A stretch of 64,000 bases of DNA from Spirochaetales bacterium (GCA_016930085.1 JAFGHO010000008.1:32146-96145), one strand, 5' to 3'. Positions 13,572 through 52,753 are shown, counted from the first letter of the stretch. Notes: generated from the sequence alone by a model not told the origin. Made by a program: numbers and translations.

Positions 13572-13584
13572 ACGTTGAGAGTGT

Positions 13585-14880: not shown

Positions 14881-14966
14881 GAATGCGATAGTTGCTTTTC
14901 AGCGGGATAACCGTGGTGCAGGAGGTACGGCGGTAATGGTGCACGGTTTTTCGAACCCGTCAATCC

Positions 14967-15704
14967 CTACCGCGTCAGGAACACCGCCGGAATCCTGAAT
15001 CCCGCTTTCAGAACGAACTCCTCGTCATAATAGGCGAGATCGAAAACGAACAGGTACCAGCGGAGGCCGCACATGATCCCGAATCCGAGTCTGTCCTGAT
15101 CGTAATATTCATCGCCCCTCTCGTAACGGTACCTGCCTACGAGCCCGAGGAGTCCGTACACATGAATATTGACTTCCTCCAGTGCGCCGAACTCTTCATA
15201 GAACGACGAAAACCGGTAACCCGCGTAGAAGATGGTGTCCCATATCTCTGTTTCATACCCGGCCCATTCGTCCGAAAGCAGATAGGCAAAGGCGCCCGCT
15301 TCGATCATATGAAGGTCGAGGGCGTAACATGTGCCCTTCCGTATCCAGTAGATATCGACCGGTTGTCCGAACTCGTTGTACCCCGACCCGATAAACGTCA
15401 TGGTCGTGTACTGCTTTTTCCCGAATGTCTCGTCCAGGACGATCCCGATACCCGCCTCGGGAATAAAGCCCGTGTAGCCGACGTCATAGCAGTACTGGAC
15501 GCCGAGGTGAAAGAGAACGCTGAATCCGAAGTAGAGATCGACGAAGGCCCCGGAAGAGATCGCTCCGAGGTCGCCGAAAAGCTGGGCACTGAATACCTCG
15601 AGATCAAGATTGACTAGAGAATAATCTTCAGCATAAAGAAACGATGCTAAAAAAAGGATAATGAGAAGTGTCATGATTATTTTTTTCATAATTATGTATA
15701 TCAT
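14967..15704 (-). CDS. hypothetical secreted protein, possible beta-barrel
   Basis: Signal peptide MKKIIMTLLIILFLASFLYAED, Gly/Tyr/Phe-rich alternating pattern, and an aromatic-rich C-terminus. The start may be the ATG at 15689 rather than 15704. Confidence 0.55.
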   Translation of the reverse strand: MIYIIMKKIIMTLLIILFLASFLYAEDYSLVNLDLEVFSAQLFGDLGAISSGAFVDLYFGFSVLFHLGVQYCYDVGYTGFIPEAGIGIVLDETFGKKQYTTMTFIGSGYNEFGQPVDIYWIRKGTCYALDLHMIEAGAFAYLLSDEWAGYETEIWDTIFYAGYRFSSFYEEFGALEEVNIHVYGLLGLVGRYRYERGDEYYDQDRLGFGIMCGLRWYLFVFDLAYYDEEFVLKAGFRIPAVFLTR

Positions 15705-15866
15705 TGGTGCGGGAAAAATGCAACCGGAAATATATGGAAGGACCCTGAGGGTATAACGGAGAATGCCCTGAATGTGAGTAACGGAGGTACCTTATTCGAT
15801 TGACAATGACAGGGTCATTTTGCATAATAATATAGGAAGCGTTATTATATCCGGAAGGAGTTATTC

Positions 15867-24177: not shown

Positions 24178-25443
24178 ATGAACATGAATCATGCAATAAA
24201 AACTATTATGTGTGTGTGTTTATTATGTCTGGTGCCCTGTTTCTACCTCGGCGCCCAGGGACCCGGCGATGTCAATAACGACAACAGCATTACGATTGTC
24301 GACGCACTTCTCGTCGCCCAATACACCGTCGGACTCAATCCGTCCAACTTCGACCAGAGCAGGGCTGATATAAATGCAGACGGACAGATCAATATCGTCG
24401 ATGCACTCGTCATTGCACAGATTTCTGTGGGATTGCAGACGCCGCCGCCTTCCCAGACGAATCCGCCGGCAACCGAGCCGCCCCAGGTAACACCGACACC
24501 GGATGCAGGCACCGGAGGTTTTGCCCGAGGAGTCGATATTTCAGAAGGAAATTTTGCGACCGAAAGGGGAGTCGTTTATAAAGATAGAAACGGAACTTCC
24601 GGTCATTATCTTGATATATTGAAAAATCATGGTTTTGATTGGATAAGGATCAGGGTACTGGTCAGTCCTCCGGGCGACCACGGGCTTTACCAGACCACCA
24701 GTTATGTCAGGGACGTTGTCCGGACGGCAAAAAGCAAGGGATTCAAGGTCCTTCTTGTCTTTTTCTATTCGGACTGGTGGTGCGATCCCGGACAGAATGC
24801 GCGTCCCGCGGGCTGGCCGGGTGACATCAGCCAGTTGGAACAGAAACTCTACGATTATACCCGGGAGACCCTCAACGCGATCGGGGTCGGCAATCTCGAT
24901 ATGGTCGCAGTGGGAAACGAGATCGATAATATGATGTGCGGAGCGACAGGATCGAATAAAAGGAGACTGGTCGACAAGGGATATGATGCGGTGAAATCGG
25001 TCTCATCGTTGCCGGTAATGGTTCAAAGTGCCGAGGGAAGTTATTCATGGTTCAGCAGTCTCGGCGCGAAGGTCGATGTCTATGGAATATCCCACTACAT
25101 CATGTGGCATGGCGGTCTCGGTACCATGGCCGGCAGAATAAGCAGTTTCGGCGACAGGGACATGTGGGTCTGTGAAACGGCAATGTACTGGAAACATAGT
25201 GAAGCGAATCATTCGACAAGCGGATATTCACAGGATCAGGACGGACAATACCAGTATATGCGGGATTTTCTATCAACGGCACGGAATTATTCAAACTGCA
25301 AGGGTGTGGCCTATTGGGGGGCCTGCTGGGCTCAAACCGGAACATGGCTTTACGCCCCGCAATGGAGTAATGACGATGCGGGCTGCAGGGGATTATTCGA
25401 TGATAATGCCCGGGCCACTCGCGGAATAGAAGGCTGGCAATAG
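24178..25443 (+). CDS. dockerin-containing arabinogalactan endo-beta-1,4-galactanase (GH53)
   Basis: Signal peptide, then a type-I dockerin duplication (GDVNNDNSITIVDALLVAQY / ADINADGQINIVDALVIAQ) and a Pro/Thr linker. The GH53 core has GVDISE, GFDWIRIRV, FFYSDWWCDPGQ, VAVGNEI and WVCETA. Confidence 0.85.
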   Translation: MNMNHAIKTIMCVCLLCLVPCFYLGAQGPGDVNNDNSITIVDALLVAQYTVGLNPSNFDQSRADINADGQINIVDALVIAQISVGLQTPPPSQTNPPATEPPQVTPTPDAGTGGFARGVDISEGNFATERGVVYKDRNGTSGHYLDILKNHGFDWIRIRVLVSPPGDHGLYQTTSYVRDVVRTAKSKGFKVLLVFFYSDWWCDPGQNARPAGWPGDISQLEQKLYDYTRETLNAIGVGNLDMVAVGNEIDNMMCGATGSNKRRLVDKGYDAVKSVSSLPVMVQSAEGSYSWFSSLGAKVDVYGISHYIMWHGGLGTMAGRISSFGDRDMWVCETAMYWKHSEANHSTSGYSQDQDGQYQYMRDFLSTARNYSNCKGVAYWGACWAQTGTWLYAPQWSNDDAGCRGLFDDNARATRGIEGWQ

Positions 25444-32273: not shown

Positions 32274-33368
32274 ATGAAAAAAACATCACCATGGATAAAA
32301 AAAACGACGTTATTGTTTCTGTTTTTATTCTGTACGGCCGTCCTCGCACCCTCACAGACCGTTATCGGCGATACAAACTCGGACGGTAATATCGATATTA
32401 CAGACAGTCTTCGTGTCGCCCAATACTATGTCGGGTTGATTCCCGCCAATTTCGATACGCAAGCGGCGGACGCCAATTGTGATGGCGCGATCGATATCGT
32501 CGATGCCCTTCTCATCGCTCGATATTACGTGGGACTGATCGGTGAATTTGCCGACTGTCTTACCCCGACACCGGTTCCACAGGGGGCGGAGGATGAGGAG
32601 TTGATTCAGAACTGGGCAAAAGAAAATCGTATCGACCTGACCGGTTACCGCCGGGAGCGTATTTCAGATGAATCGGTTGACTATATTCTTCCCGGTTTTG
32701 TATTTTACAGCGTTTATCTCAATCAGTGGCCCGTGGCGTACGGTCCTCCGGACGAACAGCTTGGAGAAAACAGCATCGTGGCCATCGATGCCGGTCGAAC
32801 CGTGATACTCATTCGGGATGAATCTTACCTCCAAAGCTTTTTTATCGACAACCAGATCACACTATCGACACCCGAAGACCGAATCGAAATGATAAAAGCC
32901 TGGCTGGGACTGAGTCAGGAAATGAAAAACGACGGTTACTATTCGTTTTTAATTTCGGAAGACGATATCGTCGTTACGCATCTGATAGGAGACGCGGTCG
33001 AATGGGAGGTGACGGGAACGAGCACGGTATCCGGCGGCGGAGAAGGGTATATCACGGCACGGGCGGTCATTGACGTCCTCGGTTCCCTTATGTATGTCGA
33101 TGAAGAATATGAATTGATTGCGGGGATAAGACCGATTTGCCAGTCGACACTTCTTCTCAATCCCAATACCGTGATCAGGACCATGGCCGAACAGGACCTC
33201 CTGGTCATGGGAACGTGCGCACAGCATTACCTGTTTTCCTGGCGGCAACGACTCGAACCCGAATTGCAGTTGGCTGTCGAACGTATCTGGCAACGGATAT
33301 TGCTTCGTGAGGAAAGCAGAAAACGTCTGCAAAGCAGAATGCGTCTGCGGCAGAAGATGGACAGATGA
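32274..33368 (+). CDS. dockerin-containing secreted protein with uncharacterised C-terminal domain
   Basis: Signal peptide, then a dockerin duplication (GDTNSDGNIDITDSLRVAQYYVG / ADANCDGAIDIVDALLIARYYVG). About 260 further aa carry no recognised motif. Confidence 0.75.
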   Translation: MKKTSPWIKKTTLLFLFLFCTAVLAPSQTVIGDTNSDGNIDITDSLRVAQYYVGLIPANFDTQAADANCDGAIDIVDALLIARYYVGLIGEFADCLTPTPVPQGAEDEELIQNWAKENRIDLTGYRRERISDESVDYILPGFVFYSVYLNQWPVAYGPPDEQLGENSIVAIDAGRTVILIRDESYLQSFFIDNQITLSTPEDRIEMIKAWLGLSQEMKNDGYYSFLISEDDIVVTHLIGDAVEWEVTGTSTVSGGGEGYITARAVIDVLGSLMYVDEEYELIAGIRPICQSTLLLNPNTVIRTMAEQDLLVMGTCAQHYLFSWRQRLEPELQLAVERIWQRILLREESRKRLQSRMRLRQKMDR

Positions 33369-35000: not shown

Positions 35001-36356
35001 TTAATGTTGATCTATAGAATACATTACAAGTCCGGATACGGGCTTCGGGTAAAAAAAAGTCGATTTTCTGGGCATAACTTCCTTGTTATCGGAAATAGCG
35101 ATGACGTCACTCAGTTTTGTGGCATTGAGTATAACGGCCGCCTGATTGCGGCCCTCAGCAACCGATTCGACCGCTTCGTTCGGATCGACGATATACCGGA
35201 CATTTGTATTTGCGGCAAGCTGTTCCTCGGAAATGCCGAGTAGCTGCTTGAACAGGAGGTAATTGACGATGTTTACGTCAAGGCGTTTCCACGCGGACGA
35301 CTGATCGAGGTCGACCAGTTCCTCGTATGCTTCCGAATCCTTGAGTGTGAGGAGATAGTAGCACTCCCGGCCCCCGAGATACAATCCGAACTGGTGTTCC
35401 TCCTCATTTTCCGTTTTAATCCTGTCAAGCCAAGTTTTTCTCACTTCTTTTTCATTCCGGTTTTCCCATCGATATTCCCGTACGTGAAAATGATGCGACA
35501 CATCACTCATGACCGTATCCCAGTTACCGATCGAAAGATGATGAACCGCCCTGTGAGTGGGGAGAATAGTGAGTCCTTCATGGGAGGTATTGACCAGAAA
35601 CATCATGATGAACTCCCATGGGGCATCCGGTCCTGCATCGGGATATTTTCTCCGGAATTCATTCCGGATATGAAGCATCGTCTGATAACGGTGATGTCCG
35701 TCTGCGATATATATCCTGCACCCGGATAGTGTTGCTTGTATTCGTTCGCACATACCGGGATCGACCAGGCGCCATAATCGGTGCCGGACCGATGTATCGG
35801 GTTCAATGTAATCGATAATCCCGGATTCCTTTGAACATTCATCCAGAATATTATCAACCACAAATCCTTTATCCTGATACATACCCCAGATATATTCGAA
35901 TTGCGTATTTGTCGTTTCAGTGAGTCTGATTCTGTCCAGGAGGGCGTCACGAAGTACTTTTTCGTGCGGAAGAATCCTCATCTCCTCATAATCGTAAAGG
36001 CGTACTTTTCCGATAAATCCCTTTACTTTCCTGGGTCCGCCGTCATTGATTCTAAACTCCTGTTCGTACACCCAGAAGGAATCCCTTGCCGTTTTATGCA
36101 GGATATTCTGATCGCACCACGTTTTCAAATAATCGCGGGCCCGCGTATATTGATTGCTCAGGGCATTGTCTGCTGTTTCCGATTTTCCAAGAATAAGGCG
36201 AATGATATTGTTTTCATGCCGCCGGTAGTATTTCTCCTGTTGTGCAGGGGAAATAACATCATATGGTTGCGAGAGACACGCACCGATGTCTCCGATCTTC
36301 ATGGGATTATAGTGATAGGCGCAGAACGGGCGCACGTCATTGATATTATTATCCAT
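35001..36356 (-). CDS. DUF1015 domain protein
   Basis: RIYIADGHHRYQT motif with family-typical length. I prefer the ATG at 36356 because of a good ggagagaagga RBS; the ORF-track start is at 36464. Confidence 0.8.
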   Translation of the reverse strand: MDNNINDVRPFCAYHYNPMKIGDIGACLSQPYDVISPAQQEKYYRRHENNIIRLILGKSETADNALSNQYTRARDYLKTWCDQNILHKTARDSFWVYEQEFRINDGGPRKVKGFIGKVRLYDYEEMRILPHEKVLRDALLDRIRLTETTNTQFEYIWGMYQDKGFVVDNILDECSKESGIIDYIEPDTSVRHRLWRLVDPGMCERIQATLSGCRIYIADGHHRYQTMLHIRNEFRRKYPDAGPDAPWEFIMMFLVNTSHEGLTILPTHRAVHHLSIGNWDTVMSDVSHHFHVREYRWENRNEKEVRKTWLDRIKTENEEEHQFGLYLGGRECYYLLTLKDSEAYEELVDLDQSSAWKRLDVNIVNYLLFKQLLGISEEQLAANTNVRYIVDPNEAVESVAEGRNQAAVILNATKLSDVIAISDNKEVMPRKSTFFYPKPVSGLVMYSIDQH

Positions 36357-36643
36357 AAATGTTCCTTCTCTCCATATGTGGGTATATTTGCGGTGGTTGA
36401 CGACGCCGACCGGTCCGCCTTTCGTTTTAAACCGTTGCCTCTCTTTAAAAATACTGGTATACAATGAATGATATTACTATGATGTATCGTTCATCCAGTT
36501 ATGGAATACTTCTACAAGGAGCGTCTATTGTAGACTTCATATGATAAAGGGTCAAGAGATTCTCTGTAAAAGGTCGCTGATTGTGTCGATACTATAAGCA
36601 AACAAGATCATTGTATGTTTGCATGTCGGGAGTTCTTTTGCTT

Positions 36644-38134
36644 ATGAAAAATGTCGCCGTCATTAATGGGATATCCTGCACGCGTTTTACTTATGAAACG
36701 CTGATAGACGGGAAAAATGCTTTTGATGCCGTACTCGCATACGCCGGGGCGCTGCCCCATGTCGAAAAAGTGGTTCTGCTTGGTAACATGGATACCATTG
36801 CACAACCTTCCTGTGAAGCTATAACGAAAGCGTCCTGGAATGTCGGAGAACTTCTCCATTCACTCAAAGAGGTTTCAAAGGGATGTGACGTTATTTTTTA
36901 TTGTTATGCCGATTGTCCGTATCTCGATGCCGGCCTTGCCGGAAAAATGTATCGTCACCATAAACAGTCACTCGCAGATTATACCTGTTCAGACGGCTAT
37001 CCATACGGACTCACACCCGAACTTATCTCTCATGATATTATTTCCAGACTGATAACCCTTTCCGGTGAGGGAAAAGATACCATCACAAGAGAAAGCATCT
37101 TTAACCTGATAAAAACCGACATTAATGCCTTTGATATTGAAACTGAACTCGCCCCGAAAGATTTACGTCTTCTCAGAGTCTCTCTTACCGCCGATACAAA
37201 ACGAAACTTCATGCTGCTCGAGCGACTTGCATCCGAAAAGGCAACATCCGAACCTTCTATCATACGCCTCCTCGATGAAAATCCCATGATATTGCGGACA
37301 TTACCCGCATATTATTCAATCCAGATTTCAGAACCATGTCCACAGACGTGTACCTATTGTCCCTATCCCCTGATCGCGGGGGAGGTCAGGAAAAAAACCG
37401 GATATATGTCGTATAAGCATTTCAAGTCTATACTCGACGATATCGAAACTTTTTCTGATGATGCGGTGATCGGACTTTCACTCTGGGGCGAACCCGCGCT
37501 GCATCCCGAAATTGCTTCGCTCGCCGGAGAAGTGCTGAAAAGGAAGTCCCTCTCGCTTGTGATCGAAACCTCGGGTATCGGATGGAACGAATCCGTATTA
37601 AAAGAGATCGCGCGGTACGGTAAAAAACAATGTTCCTGGATCGTGAGTCTCGATGCATGGTCAAAGGAAATATACAGGATGCTGCGGGGAGAAGGTTATG
37701 AGGAGGCATACAGGACGGTATCGATATTGCGTGAAATAAATCCAAAACAGGTCTATGTCCAGGCTGTTAGGATGAAAGATAACGAGGATGATCTCGAACA
37801 ATTCTATAAAAACTGGCATAAAGAGACGGAGAATGTGATAGTCCAAAAATATGACGCGTTTTCCGAATTCCTGCCCGATAAAAAGGTTACCGATCTTTCT
37901 CCGCTTAATCGTTTCCCATGTTGGCATGTAAAACGGGAGATGGCTGTATTGATTGACGGTACCGTTCCTCTGTGCCGAGAGGATATCAGGCGGGAACATA
38001 TCCTGGGAAACGTGTTTGAGGATTCCATTGATTCGATATGGAATACCGGCGAAAGTTTTTACCGGCTTCATACCGGAAAGGATTATCCCGATATATGCAA
38101 ACGATGCGATGAGTACTATACCTATAACTTCTGA
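36644..38134 (+). CDS. radical SAM / SPASM-domain enzyme with N-terminal nucleotidyltransferase-like domain ('spiro-SPASM'-type)
   Basis: CPQTCTYCP is a CX3CX2C motif. The C-terminal Cys cluster reads CWHV...PLCREDI...DICKRCDEYY. The N-terminal ~200 aa (VAVINGIS...VVLLGN...YADCPYLD) look like a MobA/IspD-type fold. I prefer the ATG at 36644. Confidence 0.8.
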   Translation: MKNVAVINGISCTRFTYETLIDGKNAFDAVLAYAGALPHVEKVVLLGNMDTIAQPSCEAITKASWNVGELLHSLKEVSKGCDVIFYCYADCPYLDAGLAGKMYRHHKQSLADYTCSDGYPYGLTPELISHDIISRLITLSGEGKDTITRESIFNLIKTDINAFDIETELAPKDLRLLRVSLTADTKRNFMLLERLASEKATSEPSIIRLLDENPMILRTLPAYYSIQISEPCPQTCTYCPYPLIAGEVRKKTGYMSYKHFKSILDDIETFSDDAVIGLSLWGEPALHPEIASLAGEVLKRKSLSLVIETSGIGWNESVLKEIARYGKKQCSWIVSLDAWSKEIYRMLRGEGYEEAYRTVSILREINPKQVYVQAVRMKDNEDDLEQFYKNWHKETENVIVQKYDAFSEFLPDKKVTDLSPLNRFPCWHVKREMAVLIDGTVPLCREDIRREHILGNVFEDSIDSIWNTGESFYRLHTGKDYPDICKRCDEYYTYNF

Positions 38135-39074
38135 ATATAATTCGATTCAATACACGATCGTGGGCGACAGTGCCTATGATCCGGGATCCGGGGAGTCCCC
38201 CCGCCTGACGATCCTCTTATTAAACAGGGGGGGGAAGTTTCATCGGGAGGATCTCATTGCGGGGCTGCGGTCCGTTCCTTTTACCGAGGTTCTCTTTTTT
38301 GAAGGTCCCGAACTCACCTACGATATCGAGCCGCTTTCAAAAAAATATCCTGAAGTTCGTTTTCTCCTTCTCAGGGAAAAAATTAGCGCAGGAGAAAAGA
38401 TAAATCTCGGCATTTCCGAATCACGATCCAATCTTGTCTATGTACTGTGGAGCAATATGGCGATAAACCGCGCGTCCCTTTCCGATGAGTGCATAAAACG
38501 AATGAATGAAAAAAGCGTTCTATGCAGCGTCCCGATTTTAAAAAACGTCAAGCATGAGATAATTCCCTCAATCCAGGTGCCGGGCATATCGAAAAAGGAT
38601 ATCAAGGTTGTCCCATGGGTGCCGTCCACGAAAAAAATCAGGAGTATTTTCCCGTTTGATTTCTGCGGTATTTACGATAAAAAGAAATTCAAGGCTATCG
38701 GCGGGTATGATTCGCGGATTGAAAGTCCATACTGGCAGAAAATGGATTTCGGATTCAGGGCTTTTTTATGGGGTGAAACAATCAGGCTGAATCCCGATTT
38801 GACACTCTCCTATACTCATGATATCTCAGCCGATGACACAACACCCAAGAACGGATATACATTGTTTTATCTGAAAAATATCTTCATTACCTGTAAAAAG
38901 GGGAGCGGGGTACTCCCTGTCCGGAAACTTCTATCCTATATCCTTCACTCGGACACCGGACCATTCGATTCTTTCAGGGAGTTTCAAACCATAAGGAGGT
39001 GGGTAAAAAAGAACAGGGAGCGATTCAGGCTCGATGCGTTTACCCTTCTCAAAACATGGGAGGTGCCAGAATAG
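38109..39074 (+). CDS. glycosyltransferase family 2-like protein (possibly degenerate DXD)
   Basis: LTILLLNRGG...VRFLLL...GEKINLGISESRSNLVYVLWSNM...GGYDSRIESPYWQKMDFGFRAFLWGETI resembles the GT2 fold. The start was chosen at the in-frame ATG at 38109, which overlaps the upstream gene. Confidence 0.55.
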   Translation: MSTIPITSEYNSIQYTIVGDSAYDPGSGESPRLTILLLNRGGKFHREDLIAGLRSVPFTEVLFFEGPELTYDIEPLSKKYPEVRFLLLREKISAGEKINLGISESRSNLVYVLWSNMAINRASLSDECIKRMNEKSVLCSVPILKNVKHEIIPSIQVPGISKKDIKVVPWVPSTKKIRSIFPFDFCGIYDKKKFKAIGGYDSRIESPYWQKMDFGFRAFLWGETIRLNPDLTLSYTHDISADDTTPKNGYTLFYLKNIFITCKKGSGVLPVRKLLSYILHSDTGPFDSFREFQTIRRWVKKNRERFRLDAFTLLKTWEVPE

Positions 39075-41533
39075 TCACCGGTATTTTTTTACAGGTCCGG
39101 CTTAATTCGACACGTCTTCCACGAAAAGCCCTGCTTCCGCTCAAGTCGGGAAATGTGATTGCCTTTGCGATGAGGGCTCTCCGGAAGGTTTCCGCGGATC
39201 ATTATGTTCTCCTCACCGACGCGGAAAGCGCACCCGAGCTTTCACACTATGCGGAAACCGAAGGTTTCGGACTTTTTATAGGTCCGCAAGACGATGTCCT
39301 GCTTCGATTTTGTATGGCCGCACGCCGCTATGGAGTAACGAGGGTGGTGAGGGCAACAGGCGATAACCCCCTTGTTTCACCGCTGCTTGCCAGACGGATC
39401 TTGGATATTCATACCGAAGCCGGTGCCGACCTGAGTCATTATATCGGTATTCCAATAGGAACCGGGGTCGAAGTCGTCGAAGCGGCGGCCCTTTTTCGTT
39501 CGGAAAAAGATACAAGGGATCCGTTCGAACGCGAACATATGACCACGCATATTTATCGAAACAGAAACAGGTATCGTGTTCTCGAAAAGCAGGCACCTCC
39601 GGAATATGTGATGCCGTCCGCGAGGGTCACTCTTGATACCGAAGAAGACTACAGATGGATCGTGAGGCTCGTCGATGAATTATACCGTTCGAGACCGATG
39701 GAGCCTGATGAGGTGATTCGCTGGCTGCGGGAACACGATAAGAAGGCCGGAAATAAAAAAGCGGCCTTTTCCGGAAAGCGGGTGCTGCTTGTTCCCTCGA
39801 TGATTTCCGGAGGGGGTATCGGACATTTCAAGCGGTGCGCGGCGCTTCTTCACAACGGAGATATCAATGCCTTTCTCTATATTCCAGAAAAAAATACCGA
39901 TGCGGCCGCTGTCACCGGAATGGGCCGGGAGAGGCTCGTTTTTTCACTGAAAGAAACGCCGTCATGGGATCTCATTGTTATCGACGGGCGCGCTACGACA
40001 AAAGAACAATATGAAACGATGTCGGCGTACGGTATAACAGCCGCCGTCGATGAGGGAGGTTCCGCACGCCCGTTCATTCCATATCTTGTCGACACGTTGT
40101 TGACGGTACGGTCAGGCGGAAAAAGAAATGGCCCGAATATCACGGCTCAAACGGTTCCCGCGGCCGAGAGAAGAAAAAAAAGCTTTGTTTTTCCGTTTCA
40201 AACGATACTTATATCATTCGGCGGAGACGATCCGGGTTCTCTCAGCAAAAAAATAGCCGATACCCTGATCGGAGACGGATTCTACAAACCGGAAGCAGTC
40301 ACGATTGTCAGGGGTCCCCGCTTTTCAAGCCAAAAGTGGCCGGCAGGGGTACGAATTATCGATAATCCTGAATCGATGGAACACCTTTACCCGGAACATG
40401 ATTGCCTCATCACCCACTTCGGACTTACCTGTTTCGAAGCACTTGCAGCCGGAGTCCCCGTTATCCTTTTTAATCCGTCGAACTACCATAAACGGCTTAC
40501 CGGTCATTACCGGCTTCCCCATATCGGTGTACATAAACCGGATATCGGGAAATTACGGCGGCTTCTTGCTTCAGGGAATACCTTCCAACGCGTGCTGGAT
40601 GATTATCGCATCAACTCAGAAAACGATTTCCCGTCACTGCTTTCGATTATAAATGACATGTATCCGACGGGAAACGCCTCGTGTCCGCTATGCGGCAGGG
40701 TGGGCAATAAGGTCATCGCCCGGTTTCCGGAAAAATCGTATTTTCTCTGTTCGGGCTGCCGTATTATCCATGCCGTTTTTTTCCGTAAAGAGGAACAGCG
40801 GTACGACAGGGACTATTTTTTTTCCGGGTACAGAAAACAGTACGGAAAGACATACCTCGAGGATTTCAGGGCGATAAAGGAATCGGGAGCAAGACGAATA
40901 CGGATTATCAAAAAGCTTCTTCGGGCCGTCACGAACCCTTTTCTTCTGGATATCGGCTGTGCGTACGGGCCGTTTCTGGATGCTGCGGCTGGTGAAGGTT
41001 TCCGATGCAGGGGAATCGACATATGTGAGGATGCGGTAGTTCATGTAAGAGAGACCCTCGGGATCGACTGCGATGTCTGTGATTTTACCGAAAAGGACGA
41101 CCGCCTGTTTCCCAACGGCGAAACATACGATACCGTGTCAATGTGGTTTGTGATCGAGCATTTTCAAAACACCTCGGAGATACTCATCAAGGTGAACCGT
41201 CTGTTAAAACCTGGAGGATTTTTTGCGTTTTCGACCCCCAGTGCTTCGGGAATTTCGGCAAGAAAAGACTTACGATCGTTTTTATGCCGGAATCCGTCCG
41301 ATCACTTTACCCTCTGGAAACCGCGCATGGTAAAAAGCGTACTGAAACGTTTCGGCTTTACGGTCAGAAAAATCGTCATTACCGGCCACCACCCCGAACG
41401 GTTCCCAGGGATGAAGGATATTGATAAAAACCCGAAAAAGATGCTTAATAGATGTTTGATACTTGGAAGCAGGGCGGCAGGACTGGGTGATACGTTCGAA
41501 GTATATGCGGAAAAGGTAAGGGGCGTGTTATGA
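39056..41533 (+). CDS. three-domain fusion: SpsF/PseF-type cytidylyltransferase, PseG-like (GT28-type) UDP-sugar hydrolase/transferase, and Zn-ribbon class I SAM methyltransferase
   Basis: Domain 1 has GIFLQVRLNSTRLPRKALLPL and RATGDNPLVSP. Domain 2 has GGGIGHFKRCAALL, ILISFGGDDPGSL and ITHFGLTCFEALAAGVPVILF. The Zn ribbon is CPLCG...CSGC. Domain 3 has LLDIGCAYGPFLDAA and LLKPGGFFAFSTP. The ATG at 39056 overlaps the upstream stop. Confidence 0.8.
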   Translation: MGGARIVTGIFLQVRLNSTRLPRKALLPLKSGNVIAFAMRALRKVSADHYVLLTDAESAPELSHYAETEGFGLFIGPQDDVLLRFCMAARRYGVTRVVRATGDNPLVSPLLARRILDIHTEAGADLSHYIGIPIGTGVEVVEAAALFRSEKDTRDPFEREHMTTHIYRNRNRYRVLEKQAPPEYVMPSARVTLDTEEDYRWIVRLVDELYRSRPMEPDEVIRWLREHDKKAGNKKAAFSGKRVLLVPSMISGGGIGHFKRCAALLHNGDINAFLYIPEKNTDAAAVTGMGRERLVFSLKETPSWDLIVIDGRATTKEQYETMSAYGITAAVDEGGSARPFIPYLVDTLLTVRSGGKRNGPNITAQTVPAAERRKKSFVFPFQTILISFGGDDPGSLSKKIADTLIGDGFYKPEAVTIVRGPRFSSQKWPAGVRIIDNPESMEHLYPEHDCLITHFGLTCFEALAAGVPVILFNPSNYHKRLTGHYRLPHIGVHKPDIGKLRRLLASGNTFQRVLDDYRINSENDFPSLLSIINDMYPTGNASCPLCGRVGNKVIARFPEKSYFLCSGCRIIHAVFFRKEEQRYDRDYFFSGYRKQYGKTYLEDFRAIKESGARRIRIIKKLLRAVTNPFLLDIGCAYGPFLDAAAGEGFRCRGIDICEDAVVHVRETLGIDCDVCDFTEKDDRLFPNGETYDTVSMWFVIEHFQNTSEILIKVNRLLKPGGFFAFSTPSASGISARKDLRSFLCRNPSDHFTLWKPRMVKSVLKRFGFTVRKIVITGHHPERFPGMKDIDKNPKKMLNRCLILGSRAAGLGDTFEVYAEKVRGVL

Positions 41534-43155
41534 GAAAAACGGTTTTTATTCTCGGCGGTTCGACCATGCAGCTTCCGTCGATCAGAATCGCAAAAGAAAA
41601 GGGGTGGCGGGTCATCGTCGCCGACGGAAATCCCCGGGCGGAGGGGAGAGCCCTTGCCGATCATTTTGCCCATATCGATCTGAAAGACTTGGCGGCAATG
41701 GAAAAAACAGCCCGGTATTACAATGAACTCTTCGGGCTTAACGGAATCTTTACGGCCGGGACCGATTTCTCGACGACCGTTGCTTATGTCGCTCAGAAAC
41801 TCAACCTTCCCGGTATTCCCTACGAAGCCGCCTGTAATGCGACGGACAAAGCACAGATGCGGTCCGTGCTGAAAGCCGGCGGCGTCCCGTGCCCCGACTT
41901 TTTCATCGCGGATAAAACCGCCGATCCGCATTCGATACTGAGGTCACTCCGGCTTCCGCTTGTAGTAAAACCGGTCGATAACATGGGCGCCAGGGGTGTC
42001 AGGCGCGTTGATTCGGCGGAAGAGCTCGGGTCTGCAATCGGCAACGCGGTTTTTCATTCCCGTTCGGGCAGAGCGATAGTCGAGGAGTTCATCGACGGCC
42101 GGGAATTGAGTCTGGATGCGATCATTTACGACAATACCATCACCGTCTGCGGGATTGCGGACCGGCATATCTGTTTTCCTCCGTATTTTGTTGAGATGGG
42201 TCATACCATGCCCACGTCACTTCCCGAAACAGAAATCGCCAGGGTGGAAGACGTGTTTAAACGGGGAATACGGGCACTCGGGATCGTCAATGGCGCAGCC
42301 AAAGGGGATATCAAGGTGACGGCCGGCGGACCGGTCATTGTGGAAATTGCGGCGCGGCTTTCGGGCGGTTATATGTCCGGCTGGACGTTTCCCTATTCTT
42401 CCGGTATTGAAGTGACGGAAGCGGCACTCCACATCGCCATGGGCCTTCCGCCCGGACGACTGGCCACTATGGAAAGGAATGTGTCTGCGGAAAGGGCCTT
42501 TATCTCGATCCCCGGAATGATCAATTCGATATCGGGTTATGATGAAGCGGGGAAATCTCCTCATATCATGACGACGTTCTGCAGGGTAGGCCCGGGCGAT
42601 ACGGTCGTGTTTCCCAGAAACAATGTCGAAAAATGCGGTAACGTCATCTCAAAAGCCCCCTTGCGCGAAGAGGCTATCGTATGCGCCGAGGAAGCGGTAC
42701 GGAAGATCATTATCAGGCTCGAGCCGGACAACAGGATAACGGAAGACTTCCTTTTCTCCCGCTCGGGTGAACCGTGGGTGAATACGATTTCCGCATTCAC
42801 CCTTGATGATCCGGAAAACAGAAACGCATTCGAAATGATGATCCCGTTTATATGTGACGATAAAATCGGAAAACAGGAATCGATCACAGTACTTCCACTC
42901 CCTTCGATCGGGGACGAAACCGTGAGGAACTGGCACGGTGAACTCATGAAAGATGCGATAACGACATTGGTTCGGATTGCGGGCATTGAATTCGAAGGGG
43001 AAGGCCGTCACGGTTCATGCATCCTGGGAAAAAGTTTCTGGCGGGCATTTTTAAAAGGAGGAATTCAGGGCGGCCTTTATATCATCGATTCACTGAAACG
43101 CGCTTTTGAGCGAAATCTTTCCTGTAAACAAAGGTTGATATCGTGGGAAGATTAA
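41530..43155 (+). CDS. ATP-grasp domain ligase
   Basis: Motifs are FILGGSTMQLPSIRIAKEKGWRVIVAD, PLVVKPVDNMGARGVRRV, IVEEFIDGRELSLDAI and VVEIAARLSGG. The start overlaps the upstream stop (ATGA-type). Confidence 0.8.
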   Translation: MRKTVFILGGSTMQLPSIRIAKEKGWRVIVADGNPRAEGRALADHFAHIDLKDLAAMEKTARYYNELFGLNGIFTAGTDFSTTVAYVAQKLNLPGIPYEAACNATDKAQMRSVLKAGGVPCPDFFIADKTADPHSILRSLRLPLVVKPVDNMGARGVRRVDSAEELGSAIGNAVFHSRSGRAIVEEFIDGRELSLDAIIYDNTITVCGIADRHICFPPYFVEMGHTMPTSLPETEIARVEDVFKRGIRALGIVNGAAKGDIKVTAGGPVIVEIAARLSGGYMSGWTFPYSSGIEVTEAALHIAMGLPPGRLATMERNVSAERAFISIPGMINSISGYDEAGKSPHIMTTFCRVGPGDTVVFPRNNVEKCGNVISKAPLREEAIVCAEEAVRKIIIRLEPDNRITEDFLFSRSGEPWVNTISAFTLDDPENRNAFEMMIPFICDDKIGKQESITVLPLPSIGDETVRNWHGELMKDAITTLVRIAGIEFEGEGRHGSCILGKSFWRAFLKGGIQGGLYIIDSLKRAFERNLSCKQRLISWED

Positions 43156-44198
43156 AACCTCACATACTTTTTTCACTCGGCGTCATTGTGACGATAACCA
43201 CATCCTTCCTTTATGCCGGGGAAGAGGATCTGATTGAAATGGAAACGTTTCTGAAGGAACAGAATGCGCGGCTATTATGGAATCCAGTCACCGATTCGGG
43301 GATGATCACGAAAAAAGGGAGTACCGTTTCATTCAAACCCGGCGCTTCCTGGATTCTCTTCGATTACCGGGAGTTGAAGTCGATTAAAAAAATATCAAGA
43401 GAAAACGGCAGGATTGTAATACCCGCTTCAACCGCCGCGGCAATCACCTCGTATTTCACCCGCGTGGAAAAAGAACGCTTATCATCGCCGCATGTCGAGG
43501 TGATCCTCATCGACCCCGGTCACGGCGGCAAGGATCCCGGCGCCCTTTATACTCACAAGACAAAGAATGGTACCTTTACCCTGTACGAAAAAGATTTGAC
43601 ACTCAAAGTCGCTTTGACGCTTGATTCCCTTTTCAGAAACAGGTACCCTGAAAAGAAAATTATCCTCACCCGCCGGACGGATATGTATCTGAAACTCGAA
43701 GAACGTGTTGAAATAGCCAATGACCTTGAAGTGGAGGATTATGAGGCGGTCGTCTATATATCAATTCATTTCAATGCGTCGTTTAATAAAAATGCAAAAG
43801 GTTATGAAGTCTGGTATCTCCCTTCGGATTACAGGCGGAATCTTATCGATGAAAAAGATGCAGAAACCGAAGAAAAGGATATTATTCCCATCCTCAACAC
43901 GATGCTGGAAGAAGAATATACACTTGAAAGTATCACCCTTGCCACAGACATTCTCGGCGGTCTCGATGCCGTGTTGGGCAATGTCACGATCAACAGGGGG
44001 ATGAAAGAGGAATCGTGGTTCGTCGTTCGAAACGCACGAATGCCCTCCGTTCTTCTTGAACTTGGATTTATCACCAACAGTGACGAAGCCGTGCTGTTAA
44101 GTGATCCCGGCTACTTGAATAAATGCTCCACCGGCATATATAATGGCATCTGTACATTTATAAATCGGTTTGAACAGACAAAAGGATTTACCCAATGA
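43143..44198 (+). CDS. N-acetylmuramoyl-L-alanine amidase (Amidase_3 family)
   Basis: Motifs are ILIDPGHGGKDPGA, YISIHFNAS, GYEVWYL and PSVLLELGFITN. The N-terminal signal/TM segment and the GTG start overlap the ATP-grasp gene. Confidence 0.85.
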   Translation: MGRLKPHILFSLGVIVTITTSFLYAGEEDLIEMETFLKEQNARLLWNPVTDSGMITKKGSTVSFKPGASWILFDYRELKSIKKISRENGRIVIPASTAAAITSYFTRVEKERLSSPHVEVILIDPGHGGKDPGALYTHKTKNGTFTLYEKDLTLKVALTLDSLFRNRYPEKKIILTRRTDMYLKLEERVEIANDLEVEDYEAVVYISIHFNASFNKNAKGYEVWYLPSDYRRNLIDEKDAETEEKDIIPILNTMLEEEYTLESITLATDILGGLDAVLGNVTINRGMKEESWFVVRNARMPSVLLELGFITNSDEAVLLSDPGYLNKCSTGIYNGICTFINRFEQTKGFTQ

Positions 44199-44731
44199 AA
44201 ATGAAATTAACCATCGAACACTATCTATACATAACGGCGGGCTTCCTCCTTCTGATTCTTGTCATTTCACTTATCGCGTTCGGTGTACAGAAGGGGGACA
44301 GGACGCGAAGGGTACTTTTTTTCCCGGAGATATTTTCGGGAAAATTGAACGGCGAAGTGCGTTATATAAAACAGCAGAAGGATCTCGAACATAATATCAG
44401 CGCCTTTATCGATGAACTCTGTCTCGGGCCTTCTCTGCCGAATCTTTCGCGGCTGTTTCCCAAAGAAACCCGTCTTCTCTCCCTGCTTATCGATGACACC
44501 CACATATACCTCAATTTTTCACGTGAAATGATATTCCCTGACTCGACAATAAAACTCGATACGAACAGCATACTGAAAGCACTTATCGGAAATATCGATT
44601 ATAATTTCTCACGCGTGAAGACTGTTTCAATCTATATGAACGGCGAACCGGTTGTGCCTGATTCCGGAATAGCGTATGAGGGGGATGAATTCGAAACAAA
44701 AGTCGAATTCTATTCGGGGCTGCTGAAATAA
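44195..44731 (+). CDS. GerMN-like domain membrane-anchored protein
   Basis: 178 aa with an N-terminal TM helix. The pattern LCLGPS...LLSLLIDDTHIYLNFS...VKTVSIYMNGEP is typical of GerMN domains that follow amidase genes. It overlaps the amidase stop. Confidence 0.5.
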   Translation: MKMKLTIEHYLYITAGFLLLILVISLIAFGVQKGDRTRRVLFFPEIFSGKLNGEVRYIKQQKDLEHNISAFIDELCLGPSLPNLSRLFPKETRLLSLLIDDTHIYLNFSREMIFPDSTIKLDTNSILKALIGNIDYNFSRVKTVSIYMNGEPVVPDSGIAYEGDEFETKVEFYSGLLK

Positions 44732-44770: not shown

Positions 44771-44798
44771 TTGACAAAGGATTTTACTTTCATATAAT
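44771..44798 (+). promoter_or_regulatory. sigma70-like promoter of flaA
   Basis: ttgaca (44771-44776), a 16-nt spacer, then tataat (44793-44798). A gaaaggagag RBS precedes the ATG at 44840. Confidence 0.55.
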
Positions 44799-44839: not shown

Positions 44840-45859
44840 ATGAGACGGTTACTTATTCTAGTTACCATCATGGGGCTATTAATCTGTAACATGGTTTTTT
44901 CTCAAAGTGATGTGGGCGAGACGTTCATCGATTTTAACGAATTGGTCGCCAATAAATCGATGGATGACGGAAGGGAAGAGAATCTCGAAACACTCGTTTA
45001 TTTTGGCGAACAGGCAATCGGATCGACGGAACATTTGAAAGATAAAATGTGGACGTCGCTTGCCGTGGACAACTGGCGAGTTACCCTCGCTTCGTCTTCC
45101 AGGATTGTCGATCGACAGCGGTATTGTATCGCAAAAGCCGTACAGACACGGGACGGGACTAATGTCATGGGTATCCGGATAAAGTTTCCCGAATCGGCTT
45201 TCAACTCGTACGCGGTTATCAAACCGCCGTTTGAAATCCAGGCCTACCAGAGAAAATACAAAATGTCGGGCGGGAACGTCGAGATGGGCGAAGAGGGTGT
45301 CGTCGAGGATGAAACCGATGTCGAAGGCAGCAAATTCGACAACAAAGGCGTATTAAAGAATGTCGGCGTCATAAAGACGATATCCGTCGATATTTACGGC
45401 GCCAATTATCCCCACGGGCTTGGTCTCATTCTGATGGACCAGAATTACGAAGAGAAAACCATTCATATCGGATATCTCAATTTCGAAGACTGGCGGACCC
45501 TTCAATGGGAAAATCCCAACTATATCGAGGATGTGAGAAACAGGCCGCTGCAAAAATATCCGCTCTATCCGCGGTCCGTTCCCTATATCAAACTGATCGG
45601 TTTTGTCATTTACCGTGACGCGAATGCGTGGGGCGGGGACTTCATCACCTACATCAAAAACATCAAAGTCACCTATGACGATGCGGTTATCGAGGGTGCC
45701 GAAACCGATATTGACCACGAAGCCACATGGGGTATTATCCGCGACAAGAACGAAAGAAGAAGAAAAGCGGAATACAGACGTCTCGGCGAACGGTTGCTGC
45801 TCGAGGTGATCGAACGACAGAAAACGGCCGAAATCAAGGAAGAGACGGGCGAGAAATAA
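44840..45859 (+). CDS. flaA: flagellar filament outer layer (sheath) protein FlaA
   Basis: Signal peptide, plus blocks that I recall from Treponema FlaA: IKPPFEIQAY, GVLKNVGVIKTISVDIYGANYPHGL, W.TLQWENPNYIEDVRNRPL..YPLYP, GGDFITYIKNIKVTYDDAV and WGII. Confidence 0.85.
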   Translation: MRRLLILVTIMGLLICNMVFSQSDVGETFIDFNELVANKSMDDGREENLETLVYFGEQAIGSTEHLKDKMWTSLAVDNWRVTLASSSRIVDRQRYCIAKAVQTRDGTNVMGIRIKFPESAFNSYAVIKPPFEIQAYQRKYKMSGGNVEMGEEGVVEDETDVEGSKFDNKGVLKNVGVIKTISVDIYGANYPHGLGLILMDQNYEEKTIHIGYLNFEDWRTLQWENPNYIEDVRNRPLQKYPLYPRSVPYIKLIGFVIYRDANAWGGDFITYIKNIKVTYDDAVIEGAETDIDHEATWGIIRDKNERRRKAEYRRLGERLLLEVIERQKTAEIKEETGEK

Positions 45860-45946: not shown

Positions 45947-45962
45947 ATATAAAACGTATTAA

Positions 45963-46035
45963 TAGCGGCGAAGGGATTTGAACCCCTGACCCAGCGGATA
46001 TGAGCCGCTTGCTCTACCACCTGAGCTACACCGCC
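45963..46035 (-). tRNA. tRNA with CAU anticodon (elongator Met, or Ile2 if lysidinylated)
   Basis: The minus strand folds by hand into a 73-nt cloverleaf: ggcggtg-ta-gctc-aggtggta-gagc-a-agcgg-ctCATat-ccgct-gggtc-agggg-ttcaaat-ccctt-cgccgct-a. No CCA is encoded. Confidence 0.9.
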
Positions 46036-46054
46036 ACAGTATAAATAACGGCCT

Positions 46055-50656: not shown

Positions 50657-52753
50657 ATGGCTGTAAAAAAGAAAAAGATGAGTATCGTATCGACACTCAC
50701 CCCATACAAAAAATATCTCATACCCGGACTGGTTGTTCTTTTCGCTGTCATATTCTTTTCCGTTGTGATGGCAATGGTAGGCGGTGTTAACGCACGGCTT
50801 TCGGATATCATCAGGAATTTGGCTAAAACAAGGGATGATATCGATGTGATCAATCAGAGTCTACTCCTTTCCATCGCCCATACCAACGAAATGAGAACCC
50901 ATTTGGGATTATCGGTAAAAACATATCCCATTAATGAAAAAACCGATCCGGAAGAAGCGGATGAAGCCGAAGGCAGGGAGAATCTCGCTTTTTTCAAGGC
51001 GATCGAAACGATGTTTTCATCCTATGCCGATGAAACGTATACCAGGAAATTCGATTCGATTGCAGAAGACGAGAGGTTGATCGATATCGTCAACCGATAC
51101 GGATTTCAGACGGAAAAAGTTGAACCGTATACGTTACGGCTCATGAAAAACAAAACGGAATGGTTCTCCCTGCAATACATGCCGGAAGGGGATACCCTTA
51201 CGATTAGCACTCTCTCGGGCGATTATCTCGAGGGGGTGAGTCCCGGAAAGGATGCGGCCGTAAAAATCGAAGGCCTCATCCCGCGGGTCGACTTATATAA
51301 TTCGAAACTCAACGTCGCTTTAGGGCAATTGAAGAACATCGAGAGCGTCACCGCAGTCGGACAGGCACTCAGGAACAAGGAACTGACAGTCGCATTATCT
51401 TCCGAAGATACTGATAAATATTCATATAATGTCAATAAAGGCAGCAAGAACTTCGGGAATATCGGTTTATATAAAAAAGGCTGCCTGTTTTTTATTAATG
51501 ATCACATCTATGATTCGTTCGAGCTTTTTTATGAAGATTTTCTTTCCTATGTCGTCGATCTCGACACAAGGGATGAGCGGGCGAGACGGTTTTCGGATGC
51601 TTTGGAAACCCTTCAGAATATATTTACCGATAAAGCATTTTTAACACTTCTTGAATCGAAAGGCCTTCATATCGTCCAGACATCGAGGAAGGATGAATAT
51701 TTTACCTATTATGACGTGGTTGACAAAAGCGGGGCGCATATCGGGAGTTTTGCCGTCGATATGATGCATTTTGAAATTTATATCATGGACTCAGACGATA
51801 TTCAGATCGGTTCGATCAAATCCCTCATGGAACGCGGTGGTGAAGAGACAAAAAAAAAAATAAGCCTGCCGGAGACAATACCGCAAATTGAGGGTTTATA
51901 TCATTCGGAAGATACACTCAATCTTCTTCTTTGCGGCTCCAATGTAAACAATACCGATACGATCATGATCCTTCACATCGACCGGAAGGAGAAAAAGATA
52001 ACGATCGTCAGCGTTCCACGCGATCTCTACTATAAAGGCCGGAGAATCAATACGGTCTACTGGGCGTGGGGGCCGAATCAGCTGCTTCGGGAACTCGAAG
52101 AGATAACGGGATTGAAAATTGAAAAATTCATGCATATCGATATGTTCGCCTTTATCGACGTGGTGGATATTCTCGGGGGTATCGACATTTACCTCTATCA
52201 TGATCTTATCGATCCGACCTATAAAATAAAGGAAAACGGGAAATGGGAGACCCTGTGTTATAAAAAGGGGACCTATCACCTCAATGGCGTGCAAACCCTG
52301 CGCGTCGCGCGATCACGGCATTACTCGACCGATTTCGACAGATCACGTCGACAGCAGACGATTATTATGGCGATCCGCGACCGGCTGAAGGAAATGAGTA
52401 TCTTCAATCTCGATAAAATATATCAAATCATTTCGACACTTCTGAAATACGTCAGAACAAACATTACCCCCCTCGAAATGGCGTATTATTTCAATACCTT
52501 CAAGGATTATCGCATCAACGCGCAAAACACCCTCGATACCACCAATGTTCTTTATGCGACCTATTCCAATATCTATCTGCTCGGAAGCGATTTCGATGAA
52601 AGCCGGCTTGACGAGAATTTCAACAAGGGTGCCTGGATACTCCTCCCCATAAACAATGACTTCAATCTCGTCAAATGGTATGTCCGAGAACTCATTACCA
52701 ATGGTAAAATCAAACCGGAAACGATGGAAGAAAAAAGAGTCGCCATGGAATAG
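50657..52753 (+). CDS. LytR-CpsA-Psr (LCP) family protein with about 400-aa N-terminal extension
   Basis: N-terminal TM helix. The C-terminal LCP core has NLLLCGSNVNNTDTIMILHIDRKEKKITIVSVPRDLYY, FMHIDMFAFIDVVDILGGIDI and LRVARSRH. Confidence 0.8.
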   Translation: MAVKKKKMSIVSTLTPYKKYLIPGLVVLFAVIFFSVVMAMVGGVNARLSDIIRNLAKTRDDIDVINQSLLLSIAHTNEMRTHLGLSVKTYPINEKTDPEEADEAEGRENLAFFKAIETMFSSYADETYTRKFDSIAEDERLIDIVNRYGFQTEKVEPYTLRLMKNKTEWFSLQYMPEGDTLTISTLSGDYLEGVSPGKDAAVKIEGLIPRVDLYNSKLNVALGQLKNIESVTAVGQALRNKELTVALSSEDTDKYSYNVNKGSKNFGNIGLYKKGCLFFINDHIYDSFELFYEDFLSYVVDLDTRDERARRFSDALETLQNIFTDKAFLTLLESKGLHIVQTSRKDEYFTYYDVVDKSGAHIGSFAVDMMHFEIYIMDSDDIQIGSIKSLMERGGEETKKKISLPETIPQIEGLYHSEDTLNLLLCGSNVNNTDTIMILHIDRKEKKITIVSVPRDLYYKGRRINTVYWAWGPNQLLRELEEITGLKIEKFMHIDMFAFIDVVDILGGIDIYLYHDLIDPTYKIKENGKWETLCYKKGTYHLNGVQTLRVARSRHYSTDFDRSRRQQTIIMAIRDRLKEMSIFNLDKIYQIISTLLKYVRTNITPLEMAYYFNTFKDYRINAQNTLDTTNVLYATYSNIYLLGSDFDESRLDENFNKGAWILLPINNDFNLVKWYVRELITNGKIKPETMEEKRVAME

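Follow-up and report, generated by a model that had tools for sequence, protein, structure and literature searches.

We analysed a 64,000-nucleotide stretch of DNA from a Spirochaetales bacterium (GCA_016930085.1, JAFGHO010000008.1:32146-96145; hereafter, the window), concentrating on a block of six overlapping plus-strand genes, g1 to g6, that immediately precede flaA, the gene for the periplasmic flagellar filament sheath protein. The explanation that we favor, at roughly even chances, is that these genes form a conserved operon consisting of two modules with separate functions. Module A (g1-g4) would be a cytoplasmic pathway for nucleotide-sugar tailoring and glycosylation. Module B (g5-g6) is best explained as a periplasmic peptidoglycan amidase with its GerMN partner, an ancient neighbor of flaA.

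We treat g1-g4 as one unit for several reasons. The N-terminal domain of g1 is paralogous to the operon's own cytidylyltransferase (CT), the CT has repeatedly been fused to the PseG-like/methyltransferase (MT) protein, and the overlap between g1 and g2 is conserved. Two of the components have been lost jointly in one relative, and at the loci examined the homologues of g2 always lie in the same cluster. Since the five domains beyond the radical S-adenosylmethionine (SAM) core belong to nucleotide-sugar chemistry or carboxylate-amine ligation, and the core itself is closest to the carbohydrate dehydrogenase BtrN, this unit is most readily understood as a cytoplasmic sugar pathway.

Organization and conservation of the locus

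The five junctions of the block overlap by 26, 19, 4, 13, and 4 nt in order, and 108 nt separate g6 from flaA. The six plus-strand open reading frames (ORFs), their coordinates, and their overlapping junctions had been described in a first-pass annotation of the window and were all borne out, as were its domain calls for the six genes (by Pfam and NCBIfam, and for g2 by structure prediction). A possible alternative start of g1 is an upstream TTG at 36581; its orthologues begin MKNIAV, and the starts chosen here match the orthologue N-termini of g1 (MKNIAV), g2 (MSTIP), and g3 (MG..TGVFLQVRL).

A scan with the g1 alignment over one genome per GTDB species confirmed at least 423 relatives, and the locus was compared in the best 80 of these with ~21 kb taken per genome. 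Using tblastn with the window proteins, we found the order g1-g2-g3-g4-g5-g6-flaA, with all genes on the same strand, in practically all loci whose flanks were long enough (~57), with xseA usually divergent upstream of g1. The neighborhood comparison proposed with the first annotation therefore shows that both the gene order and the flaA adjacency are conserved across many Spirochaetia. The same cluster is present in Treponema primitia ZAS-2 (CP001843.1), Breznakiella homolactica (CP067089.2), and a Gracilinema-type genome, as well as on two metagenomic contigs with a very distant g2 (32-37% identity), and is now known in many free-living and termite-gut spirochaetes; in all, this order was found in about 60 spirochaete genomes.

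The junctions are conserved along with the order. In 96% of 74 loci, g1 and g2 overlap by the same 26 nt, and the PseG-MT/ATP-grasp and ATP-grasp/amidase junctions both have a median of -4 nt, the latter being an overlap in 85% of loci. The spacer between the GerMN gene and flaA is never shorter than 57 nt. Overlapping stop and start codons that are kept in relatives point to translational coupling throughout the block. The description of a six-gene block holds for the window itself; the usual block has seven genes, with the CT and the PseG-like/MT protein encoded separately in most relatives.

Departures from this layout occur in L078 and L079. In L078 (12260-13018), g1, g2, and the CT are kept, the PseG/MT and ATP-grasp genes are both missing, and the amidase directly follows the CT, which suggests that PseG/MT and ATP-grasp make up an optional tailoring sub-module. 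L079 carries a 5.6-kb insertion between g1 and g2 (11556-16603) with four minus-strand genes, encoding an Asp/Glu racemase, a dCache adenylate cyclase, a sodium:dicarboxylate symporter, and an amino-acid binding protein; this is possibly a hint to the substrate of the ATP-grasp enzyme, or a mere insertion. Everything seen in the sampled loci is consistent with a spirochaete-specific pathway, as had been proposed.

Upstream of g1 lies a divergent DUF1015 gene (35001-36464, minus strand), with xseA beyond it. The intergenic region between the DUF1015 gene and g1 (36465-36643) has no plus-strand promoter-like site matching at least 9/12 positions, its sites being on the minus strand only; the promoter of the operon is presumably located within it.

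The radical SAM protein g1

The 496-residue product of g1 (36644-38134, plus strand) aligns end to end with the TIGR04321 'spiro-SPASM' model (571.2 bits against a cutoff of 250; residues 4-496 on model positions 2-510 of 510), which confirms the family membership that the first-pass annotation had suggested checking. The motif CPQTCTYC is present, C232/C236/C239 (CX3CX2C) are conserved, and Radical_SAM (PF04055) is matched at 57 bits against a cutoff of 29.5. The Pfam SPASM model also matches, at 41 bits, and there are weak NCBIfam matches to the peptide maturases ScmE/F, PqqE, and MftC.

The cysteines tell a different story from the family name. Within the region formed by the radical SAM core (C232-x3-C236-x2-C239) and the auxiliary cluster domain (37301-38131), the only conserved cysteines after CX3CX2C are C426, C444, C485, and C488, present in 100% of 79 orthologues with the spacing Cx17C-x40-CxxC. 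The roughly seven cysteines of a two-cluster SPASM domain (CX9-15GX4C...CX2CX5CX3C...C) are absent, and the pattern is the four-Cys C...C...CxxC of the twitch, or BtrN-like, type. We take the single-cluster spacing Cx17C...CxxC to fit that of BtrN, the twitch domain of which has been called a truncated form of the SPASM domain.

Sequence and fold comparisons agree with this assignment. A profile built from 22 homologues of g1 had BtrN as its sole strong match in the PDB (E 1e-10; the next was anSME, at 0.011), with the peptide maturases trailing BtrN by ~8 orders of magnitude, and the HMM alignment to BtrN takes in C444, C485, and C488. The AlphaFold2 (AF2) model of g1 (pLDDT 93, pTM 0.90) likewise gave BtrN 4m7t as the top Foldseek match (E 1.9e-13, TM 0.71 on BtrN), with SuiB, anSME, and CteB also among the fold matches. 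We thus read g1 as a BtrN-like twitch radical SAM enzyme with one auxiliary cluster, in place of the SPASM enzyme originally proposed. With only four conserved C-terminal cysteines and BtrN as the best match in both sequence and fold, sugar chemistry appears much more likely for g1 than peptide chemistry.

The N-terminal ~215 residues of g1 (residues ~7-214, 36662-37285) match the Leptospira borgpetersenii cytidylyltransferase 6OEW (Foldseek E 4.7e-11, TM 0.71). This domain and the operon's CT are homologous by hhalign (probability 95.8%, E 7.7e-9, 200 columns), and 16 of 20 CT orthologues also match the N-terminal region of TIGR04321. The CT maps to the same PDB entry. The basic CTP-binding loop formed by R15, S18, R20, and K24, invariant in the CT, is missing from g1, whose N-domain is, judged from these alignments, a paralogue of the CT (encoded two genes further down) that has degenerated.

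The partner proteins g2, g3, and g4

The 321-residue product of g2 (38109-39074, plus strand) has no Pfam or NCBIfam match, and its profile gave only a spurious 13-bit match in the PDB, so its fold was resolved by structure prediction only. The AF2 model (pLDDT 87) adopts a glycosyltransferase GT-A fold, with ppGalNAc-transferases (GT27) as the top Foldseek matches (E 6.5e-14, TM ~0.62 on the query), which upholds the earlier 'GT2-like' call. The DxD/DxH metal-binding motif is not present: its position reads W-[SN]-[DN]-M, W-S-N-M in the window, and 4 of 22 orthologues have Asn in place of the Asp. The family comprises 203 representatives at E<=1e-30. Its members are mostly labeled 'hypothetical protein' where they are named, with a few records stating 'GT2 family glycosyltransferase', and include a homologue in Spirochaeta (Winmispira) thermophila. 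Among the matches listed for the family, those with an organism name are all spirochaetes, and every homologue locus that we examined is the same cluster.

The third gene (39056-41533, plus strand) is a fusion of three parts. Its N-terminal CT domain (39056-39745) matches CTP_transf_3 (PF02348) at 60 bits against 22.6 (E 3.2e-16), with R15, S18, R20, and K24 invariant. In the PDB, the CT profile matched 6OEW at 2.3e-37 and KdsB entries at ~1e-8. The PseF model TIGR03584 is matched by a single one of 20 CT orthologues (E 3.9e-4) and not by the CT of the window.

The central PseG-like GT-B domain (39788-40615) has an invariant G-x-G-H-x-x-R motif. All 22 of 22 orthologues match the PseG model TIGR03590 (best E 2.6e-16), with the window domain at about 21 bits (20-21) against a cutoff of 153.55. 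Of the 60 best PDB matches listed, only Campylobacter jejuni PseG 3HBM (E 1.7e-4) falls in this domain, and MurG is not one of them. The 'PseF/PseG-type' label of the first-pass annotation is thus accurate at the superfamily level only.

The C-terminal part (40682-41533) joins a CxxC...CxxC zinc-ribbon-like motif to a class I SAM methyltransferase (Methyltransf_23, E 1.5e-22). The first, third, and fourth cysteines of the motif are kept in at least 90% of 22 orthologues, and the profile matches include 3CC8 and UbiG as well as two sugar 3-C-methyltransferases, 5T64 and TcaB9; the part thus resembles UbiG-like O-methyltransferases and sugar C-methyltransferases. The three-part fusion noted at first is real in the window and an exception among relatives, most of which encode the CT as a separate gene of ~230-260 aa and the PseG-like/MT protein as a second one. 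True CT-PseG/MT fusions were found in the window, L052, and L082 only, which represent three distant lineages. Fusions in about ten loci had been suggested by tblastn, most of which turned out to have an in-frame stop when the ORFs were checked.

No PseB, PseC, PseH, or PseI is present in the block or among the Pfam-scanned ORFs of at least 150 aa in the window, as the first-pass annotation had stated for the block. With the PseG and PseF models also matched far under their cutoffs, we rejected a textbook pse locus.

The product of g4 (41530-43155, plus strand, 541 aa) is an ATP-grasp ligase of the L-amino-acid-ligase type, matching ATP-grasp_4 at 60.9 against 27 and LAL_C2 at 54.8 against 29.4 in Pfam. 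In the PDB, it is closest to BL00235 (3VOT, 2.2e-25) and also matches BacD; Ddl-type ATP-grasp ligases are matched as well. A C-terminal extension of ~140 aa (residues ~400-541, 42730-43152) has no Pfam or PDB sequence match. The four proteins of Module A are all without signal peptides.

The amidase-GerMN-flaA unit

The fifth gene (43143-44198, plus strand) encodes a predicted periplasmic N-acetylmuramoyl-L-alanine amidase (Amidase_3, 155.8 bits against 27, E 1.5e-45), with an N-terminal hydrophobic signal or anchor seen in the translation and a weak Cu_amine_oxidN1-like domain. It reaches no equivalog model among AmiA/B/C and CwlD in NCBIfam. The sixth (44195-44731, plus strand) encodes a GerMN (Germane, PF10646) domain protein (40.9 bits against 23, E 3.7e-10), membrane-anchored by a transmembrane segment predicted in the translation. 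GERMN domains have been reported in all sequenced spirochaete genomes, including those of Borrelia burgdorferi and T. pallidum, a GERMN-amidase fusion is known from Halothermothrix, and peptidoglycan binding has been proposed for the domain (Rigden and Galperin 2008, PMC2732212). In Borrelia, a published table lists BB_0666 (Ami) as the divisome amidase.

flaA itself (44840-45859, plus strand; PF04620, E 6.5e-62) follows with its own sigma70-like promoter, TTGACA-16-TATAAT (44771-44798). This feature of the first-pass annotation was confirmed as a perfect consensus: of the 13 promoter-like matches in 10.3 kb, this site alone scores 12/12, and the number of such matches is itself not above the count in shuffled sequence. 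A perfect consensus promoter occurs in the GerMN-flaA spacer of 41 of 54 loci. TTGACA-17-TATAAT or TATACT stands just upstream of flaA in T. primitia, Breznakiella, the Gracilinema-type genome, L083, and the T. denticola-type locus (L081, L083-L086). The best explanation of these sequences, in our view, is that the consensus sigma70 promoter of flaA accounts for most of its transcription. In Borrelia, we take BB0666 to lie two genes from flaA (BB0668).

Downstream of flaA, a tRNA-Met (CAT) gene (45962-46036, minus strand) lies in the 670-nt gap before a histidine-kinase-like gene; an Rfam scan of the window found only a tRNA. In the Treponema-type loci L082, L084, L085, and L086, flaA is followed by a RelA_SpoT/TPR small alarmone synthetase gene.

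In T. denticola, flaA (TDE1712) is co-transcribed with the four upstream ORFs TDE1713-1716, as established by co-RT-PCR, and its promoter was mapped upstream of TDE1716, four genes away; the same work classes flaA, within its cluster, as an orphan flagellar gene and does not discuss the identity of the upstream ORFs (Kurniyati et al. 2022, PMC9481697). Using a published primer as a DNA pattern, we recovered a T. denticola-type metagenomic contig, to which nine of the ten published primers match exactly. The gene order there is glyoxalase - phosphoglycerate kinase (pgk) - Amidase_3 - Germane - FlaA - RelA_SpoT/TPR. The amidase (the TDE1714 product) shares 45% identity with g5, the Germane protein 30% with g6, and FlaA 37% with that of the window, and 6 nt lie between the stop of pgk and the start of the amidase gene. 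A near-consensus sigma70 site, GTGTTGACAAA-N-CGTATACT (TTGACA-17-TATACT), precedes flaA in this locus too (L084, 5363-5470; ODVE01000336.1).

Because amidase, GerMN, and flaA occur together in the T. denticola-type locus without g1-g4, they appear to be an old shared unit. Because the unrelated pgk and glyoxalase genes are co-transcribed with flaA in T. denticola, adjacency to flaA is weak evidence of a flagellar function for g1-g4. The first-pass annotation had tentatively tied all six genes into one pathway acting on periplasmic flagella or peptidoglycan. A locus that keeps amidase-GerMN-flaA with glyoxalase and pgk in place of g1-g4 weakens the case for a single pathway, and neither adjacency nor coupling supports the link of g1-g4 to flagella or the wall. 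The same example is a caution for genome mining, in that tight operon coupling to flaA, which the T. denticola-type operon extends to pgk, is not functional evidence.

A proposed pathway and its alternatives

From the families present, we infer for Module A a CMP-sugar substrate, an order of steps, and an acceptor. The CTP_transf_3 enzyme would make a CMP-activated, ulosonic-acid-like intermediate, the sugar being probably a 2-keto-3-deoxy (ulosonic) acid because of the family to which the CT belongs. The BtrN-like radical SAM enzyme would then oxidize or deoxygenate a sugar carbon, with the degenerate cytidylyltransferase-like domain of g1 probably reading the nucleotide handle; an analogy is Fom3, which acts on cytidylylated hydroxyethylphosphonate in fosfomycin biosynthesis. 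The fused methyltransferase would methylate the sugar, the ATP-grasp enzyme would add an amide-linked amino or carboxylic acid, and the PseG-like GT-B domain may hydrolyze or transfer the nucleotide sugar. Finally, g2, with its GT-A fold lacking a conserved DxD, would transfer the product to an acceptor, with two leading candidates: the O-glycan of flagellin FlaB and a glycoconjugate of the cell envelope.

Several points weigh against a sugar pathway separate from Module B. Every family match of g1-g4 is far under the respective equivalog cutoffs. By sequence, the CT is nearer to KdsB-like models than to PseF, and the Pfam-scanned large ORFs of the window include no ulosonic-acid synthase, dehydratase, or aminotransferase. 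The product of g2 may be non-catalytic, with the Asp at the DxD position not invariant and an Asn there in the window. The overlap between ATP-grasp and amidase genes in 85% of loci could tie the modules functionally, and Module A was never seen apart from Module B in the sampled loci.

The alternative that survives best, which we nevertheless regard as unlikely, is that Module A builds or tailors the O-glycan of FlaB, a nonulosonic acid with an unusual N-acyl group. The ATP-grasp enzyme would supply the amide, the methyltransferase a methoxy group, and the radical SAM enzyme a deoxygenation, g2 would be a new flagellin glycosyltransferase, and the adjacency to flaA would be functional. The FlaB O-glycan of T. 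denticola is a 2-methoxy-4,5,6-trihydroxy-hexanoyl-nonulosonic acid (PMC13439194). To make this structure would take O-methylation, amide formation, deoxygenation, and activation with CMP, all of them predicted for Module A. The same reading gains from a PseG-like domain in every one of the 22 orthologues, from a g2 model closest to protein O-GalNAc transferases, from the lack of a DxD in g2, and from flaA being always adjacent. Metal-independent CMP-sugar transferases likewise lack a DxD. However, the T. denticola-type flaA locus is without g1-g4, and the co-transcription of pgk and glyoxalase with flaA in that species (PMC9481697) deprives the adjacency of much of its force. Moreover, FlaA is a sheath protein and not the glycosylated flagellin, the CT does not match PseF, and neither PseB/C/H/I nor Maf or FlmG was found when the window's large ORFs were scanned with Pfam.

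Somewhat less likely still is that all six genes serve one peptidoglycan or envelope pathway, in which Module A would place a substituent on a cytoplasmic wall precursor and the amidase and GerMN protein would process the wall. The frequent overlap of the ATP-grasp and amidase genes and the invariant order of the modules speak for it, as do the matches of g4 to Ddl-type ligases and the membership of PseG in a MurG-like GT-B class. The racemase, dicarboxylate/amino-acid symporter, and amino-acid binding protein inserted between g1 and g2 in L079 recall the racemase and D-Asp ligase pairs of Enterococcus. Peptidoglycan binding by GERMN (PMC2732212) would also fit. Yet the amidase-GerMN pair stands without Module A in the T. 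denticola-type locus, and GERMN has been reported from all sequenced spirochaete genomes, those of B. burgdorferi and T. pallidum included (PMC2732212). The center of g3 matches PseG, with MurG not among the best 60 PDB matches listed, the L079 insertion was seen once only and lies on the opposite strand, and no Module A protein looks like a Mur ligase or a Fem transferase.

The favored sugar-tailoring pathway can also be extended into a more specific form, which we consider a long shot. A CMP-tagged ulosonic-type sugar would be edited by the BtrN-like enzyme, held through its dead CT domain, then methylated, amide-acylated, and placed on periplasmic flagellin by g2, which would be a new GT-A family without DxD, as a spirochaete-specific system replacing Maf/FlmG.

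It is very improbable that the block consists of unrelated housekeeping genes held together by inherited synteny, with no Module A pathway at all. The T. denticola-type operon, where unrelated genes sit tightly upstream of amidase-GerMN-flaA with the pgk stop 6 nt from the amidase, is a precedent for this. Against it stand the paralogy of the g1 N-domain and the CT, the recurrent CT-PseG/MT fusion, the conserved 26-nt g1/g2 overlap, the joint loss of PseG/MT and ATP-grasp in L078, and the restriction of organism-named g2 matches to spirochaetes, with every examined homologue in the same cluster.

The idea that g1 is a SPASM peptide maturase within a system for ribosomally synthesized and post-translationally modified peptides (RiPPs) or for protein maturation draws on the 41-bit SPASM match, the weak ScmE/F, PqqE, and MftC matches, and the SuiB, anSME, and CteB folds, but is hardly credible and was rejected, because a precursor gene would find no space among the overlapping junctions and a conserved small ORF is lacking (the absence of a convincing precursor peptide had already been noted in the first-pass annotation), the N-domain is of the cytidylyltransferase fold and not a RiPP recognition element (RRE) for peptide binding, the four auxiliary-cluster cysteines provide for no second cluster, BtrN precedes every peptide maturase in the profile search, and the partner genes all encode sugar or nucleotide enzymes.

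From this analysis, the functionally blank spiro-SPASM family gains a set of fixed partners, namely a GT-A protein, a CT, a PseG-like/MT protein, and an ATP-grasp ligase. The family would be recast from possible peptide maturases to nucleotide-sugar radical enzymes of the twitch rather than the SPASM type. If confirmed, it would also offer a new case of a radical SAM enzyme reading a nucleotide tag through a degenerate nucleotidyltransferase domain. In free-living and termite-gut spirochaetes, Module A could yield a new glycoconjugate of the envelope or the flagella.

Other features of the window

Type I dockerin domains, which are cellulosome-type modules, occur in this spirochaete in two proteins (24178-25443 and 32274-33368, both plus strand), one of them fused to a GH53 galactanase. 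In a 928-aa protein (26918-29704, minus strand), a membrane glycosyltransferase of the PMT family (protein O-mannosyltransferase-like) is found together with carbohydrate-binding domains, CBM_4_9 and F5/8 type C. A 698-aa LytR_cpsA_psr (LCP) protein is encoded ~5 kb beyond the downstream end of flaA (50657-52753, plus strand); enzymes of the LCP type link glycopolymers to peptidoglycan. The gene at 56069-57832 (minus strand) encodes a protein with a pallilysin beta-barrel domain. The segment 6001-8000, between efflux-pump genes and a formyltransferase gene, has a G+C content of 0.33 compared with ~0.46 for the window and few ORFs of at least 150 aa.

Comparison with known systems

Amidase-GerMN-flaA is a known and partly characterized arrangement. 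For g1-g4, there is a curated name for one protein and a function for none; our literature searches found no publication on these genes, in agreement with the 'uncharacterised' pathway of the first-pass annotation, and a full-text search for 'spiro-SPASM' returned no paper.

A close comparison for the operon is the T. denticola flaA operon TDE1716-TDE1712. Amidase_3, GerMN, and flaA are shared in the same order and on the same strand, whereas a glyoxalase-family gene and pgk stand upstream of the amidase where the window has g1-g4.

As an end-to-end member of TIGR04321, g1 has homologues that bear this name in JGI and NCBI records; the name implies two auxiliary clusters, whereas the cysteine count of g1 fits one. 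The top match in both profile and fold is BtrN, the 2-deoxy-scyllo-inosamine dehydrogenase of butirosin biosynthesis (PDB 4M7T/4M7S). In contrast to BtrN, with which it shares only ~20% identity, g1 has the additional ~215-aa cytidylyltransferase-like N-domain and does not lie in an aminoglycoside cluster.

The predicted fold of g2 is that of GT-A glycosyltransferases (GT2/GT27), from which it differs in having no Pfam, NCBIfam, or PDB sequence match and no invariant Asp at the DxD position. With the PseG/PseF enzymes of Campylobacter and Helicobacter, g3 has in common a center that matches PseG and a CT of the family PF02348 that also includes PseF, NeuA, and KdsB; it differs in scoring far under the equivalog cutoffs, in a CT nearer to KdsB-like models and 6OEW, and in the fusion of its PseG-like domain to a methyltransferase. 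The L-amino acid ligases BL00235 (3VOT) and BacD/YwfE share ATP-grasp_4 and LAL_C2 with g4, which has the extra ~140-aa C-terminus and is found in an operon of sugar enzymes and not in a dipeptide antibiotic cluster. Overall, we rate Module A as akin to gene clusters for glycan tailoring in which one of the enzymes is a radical SAM enzyme acting on sugars.

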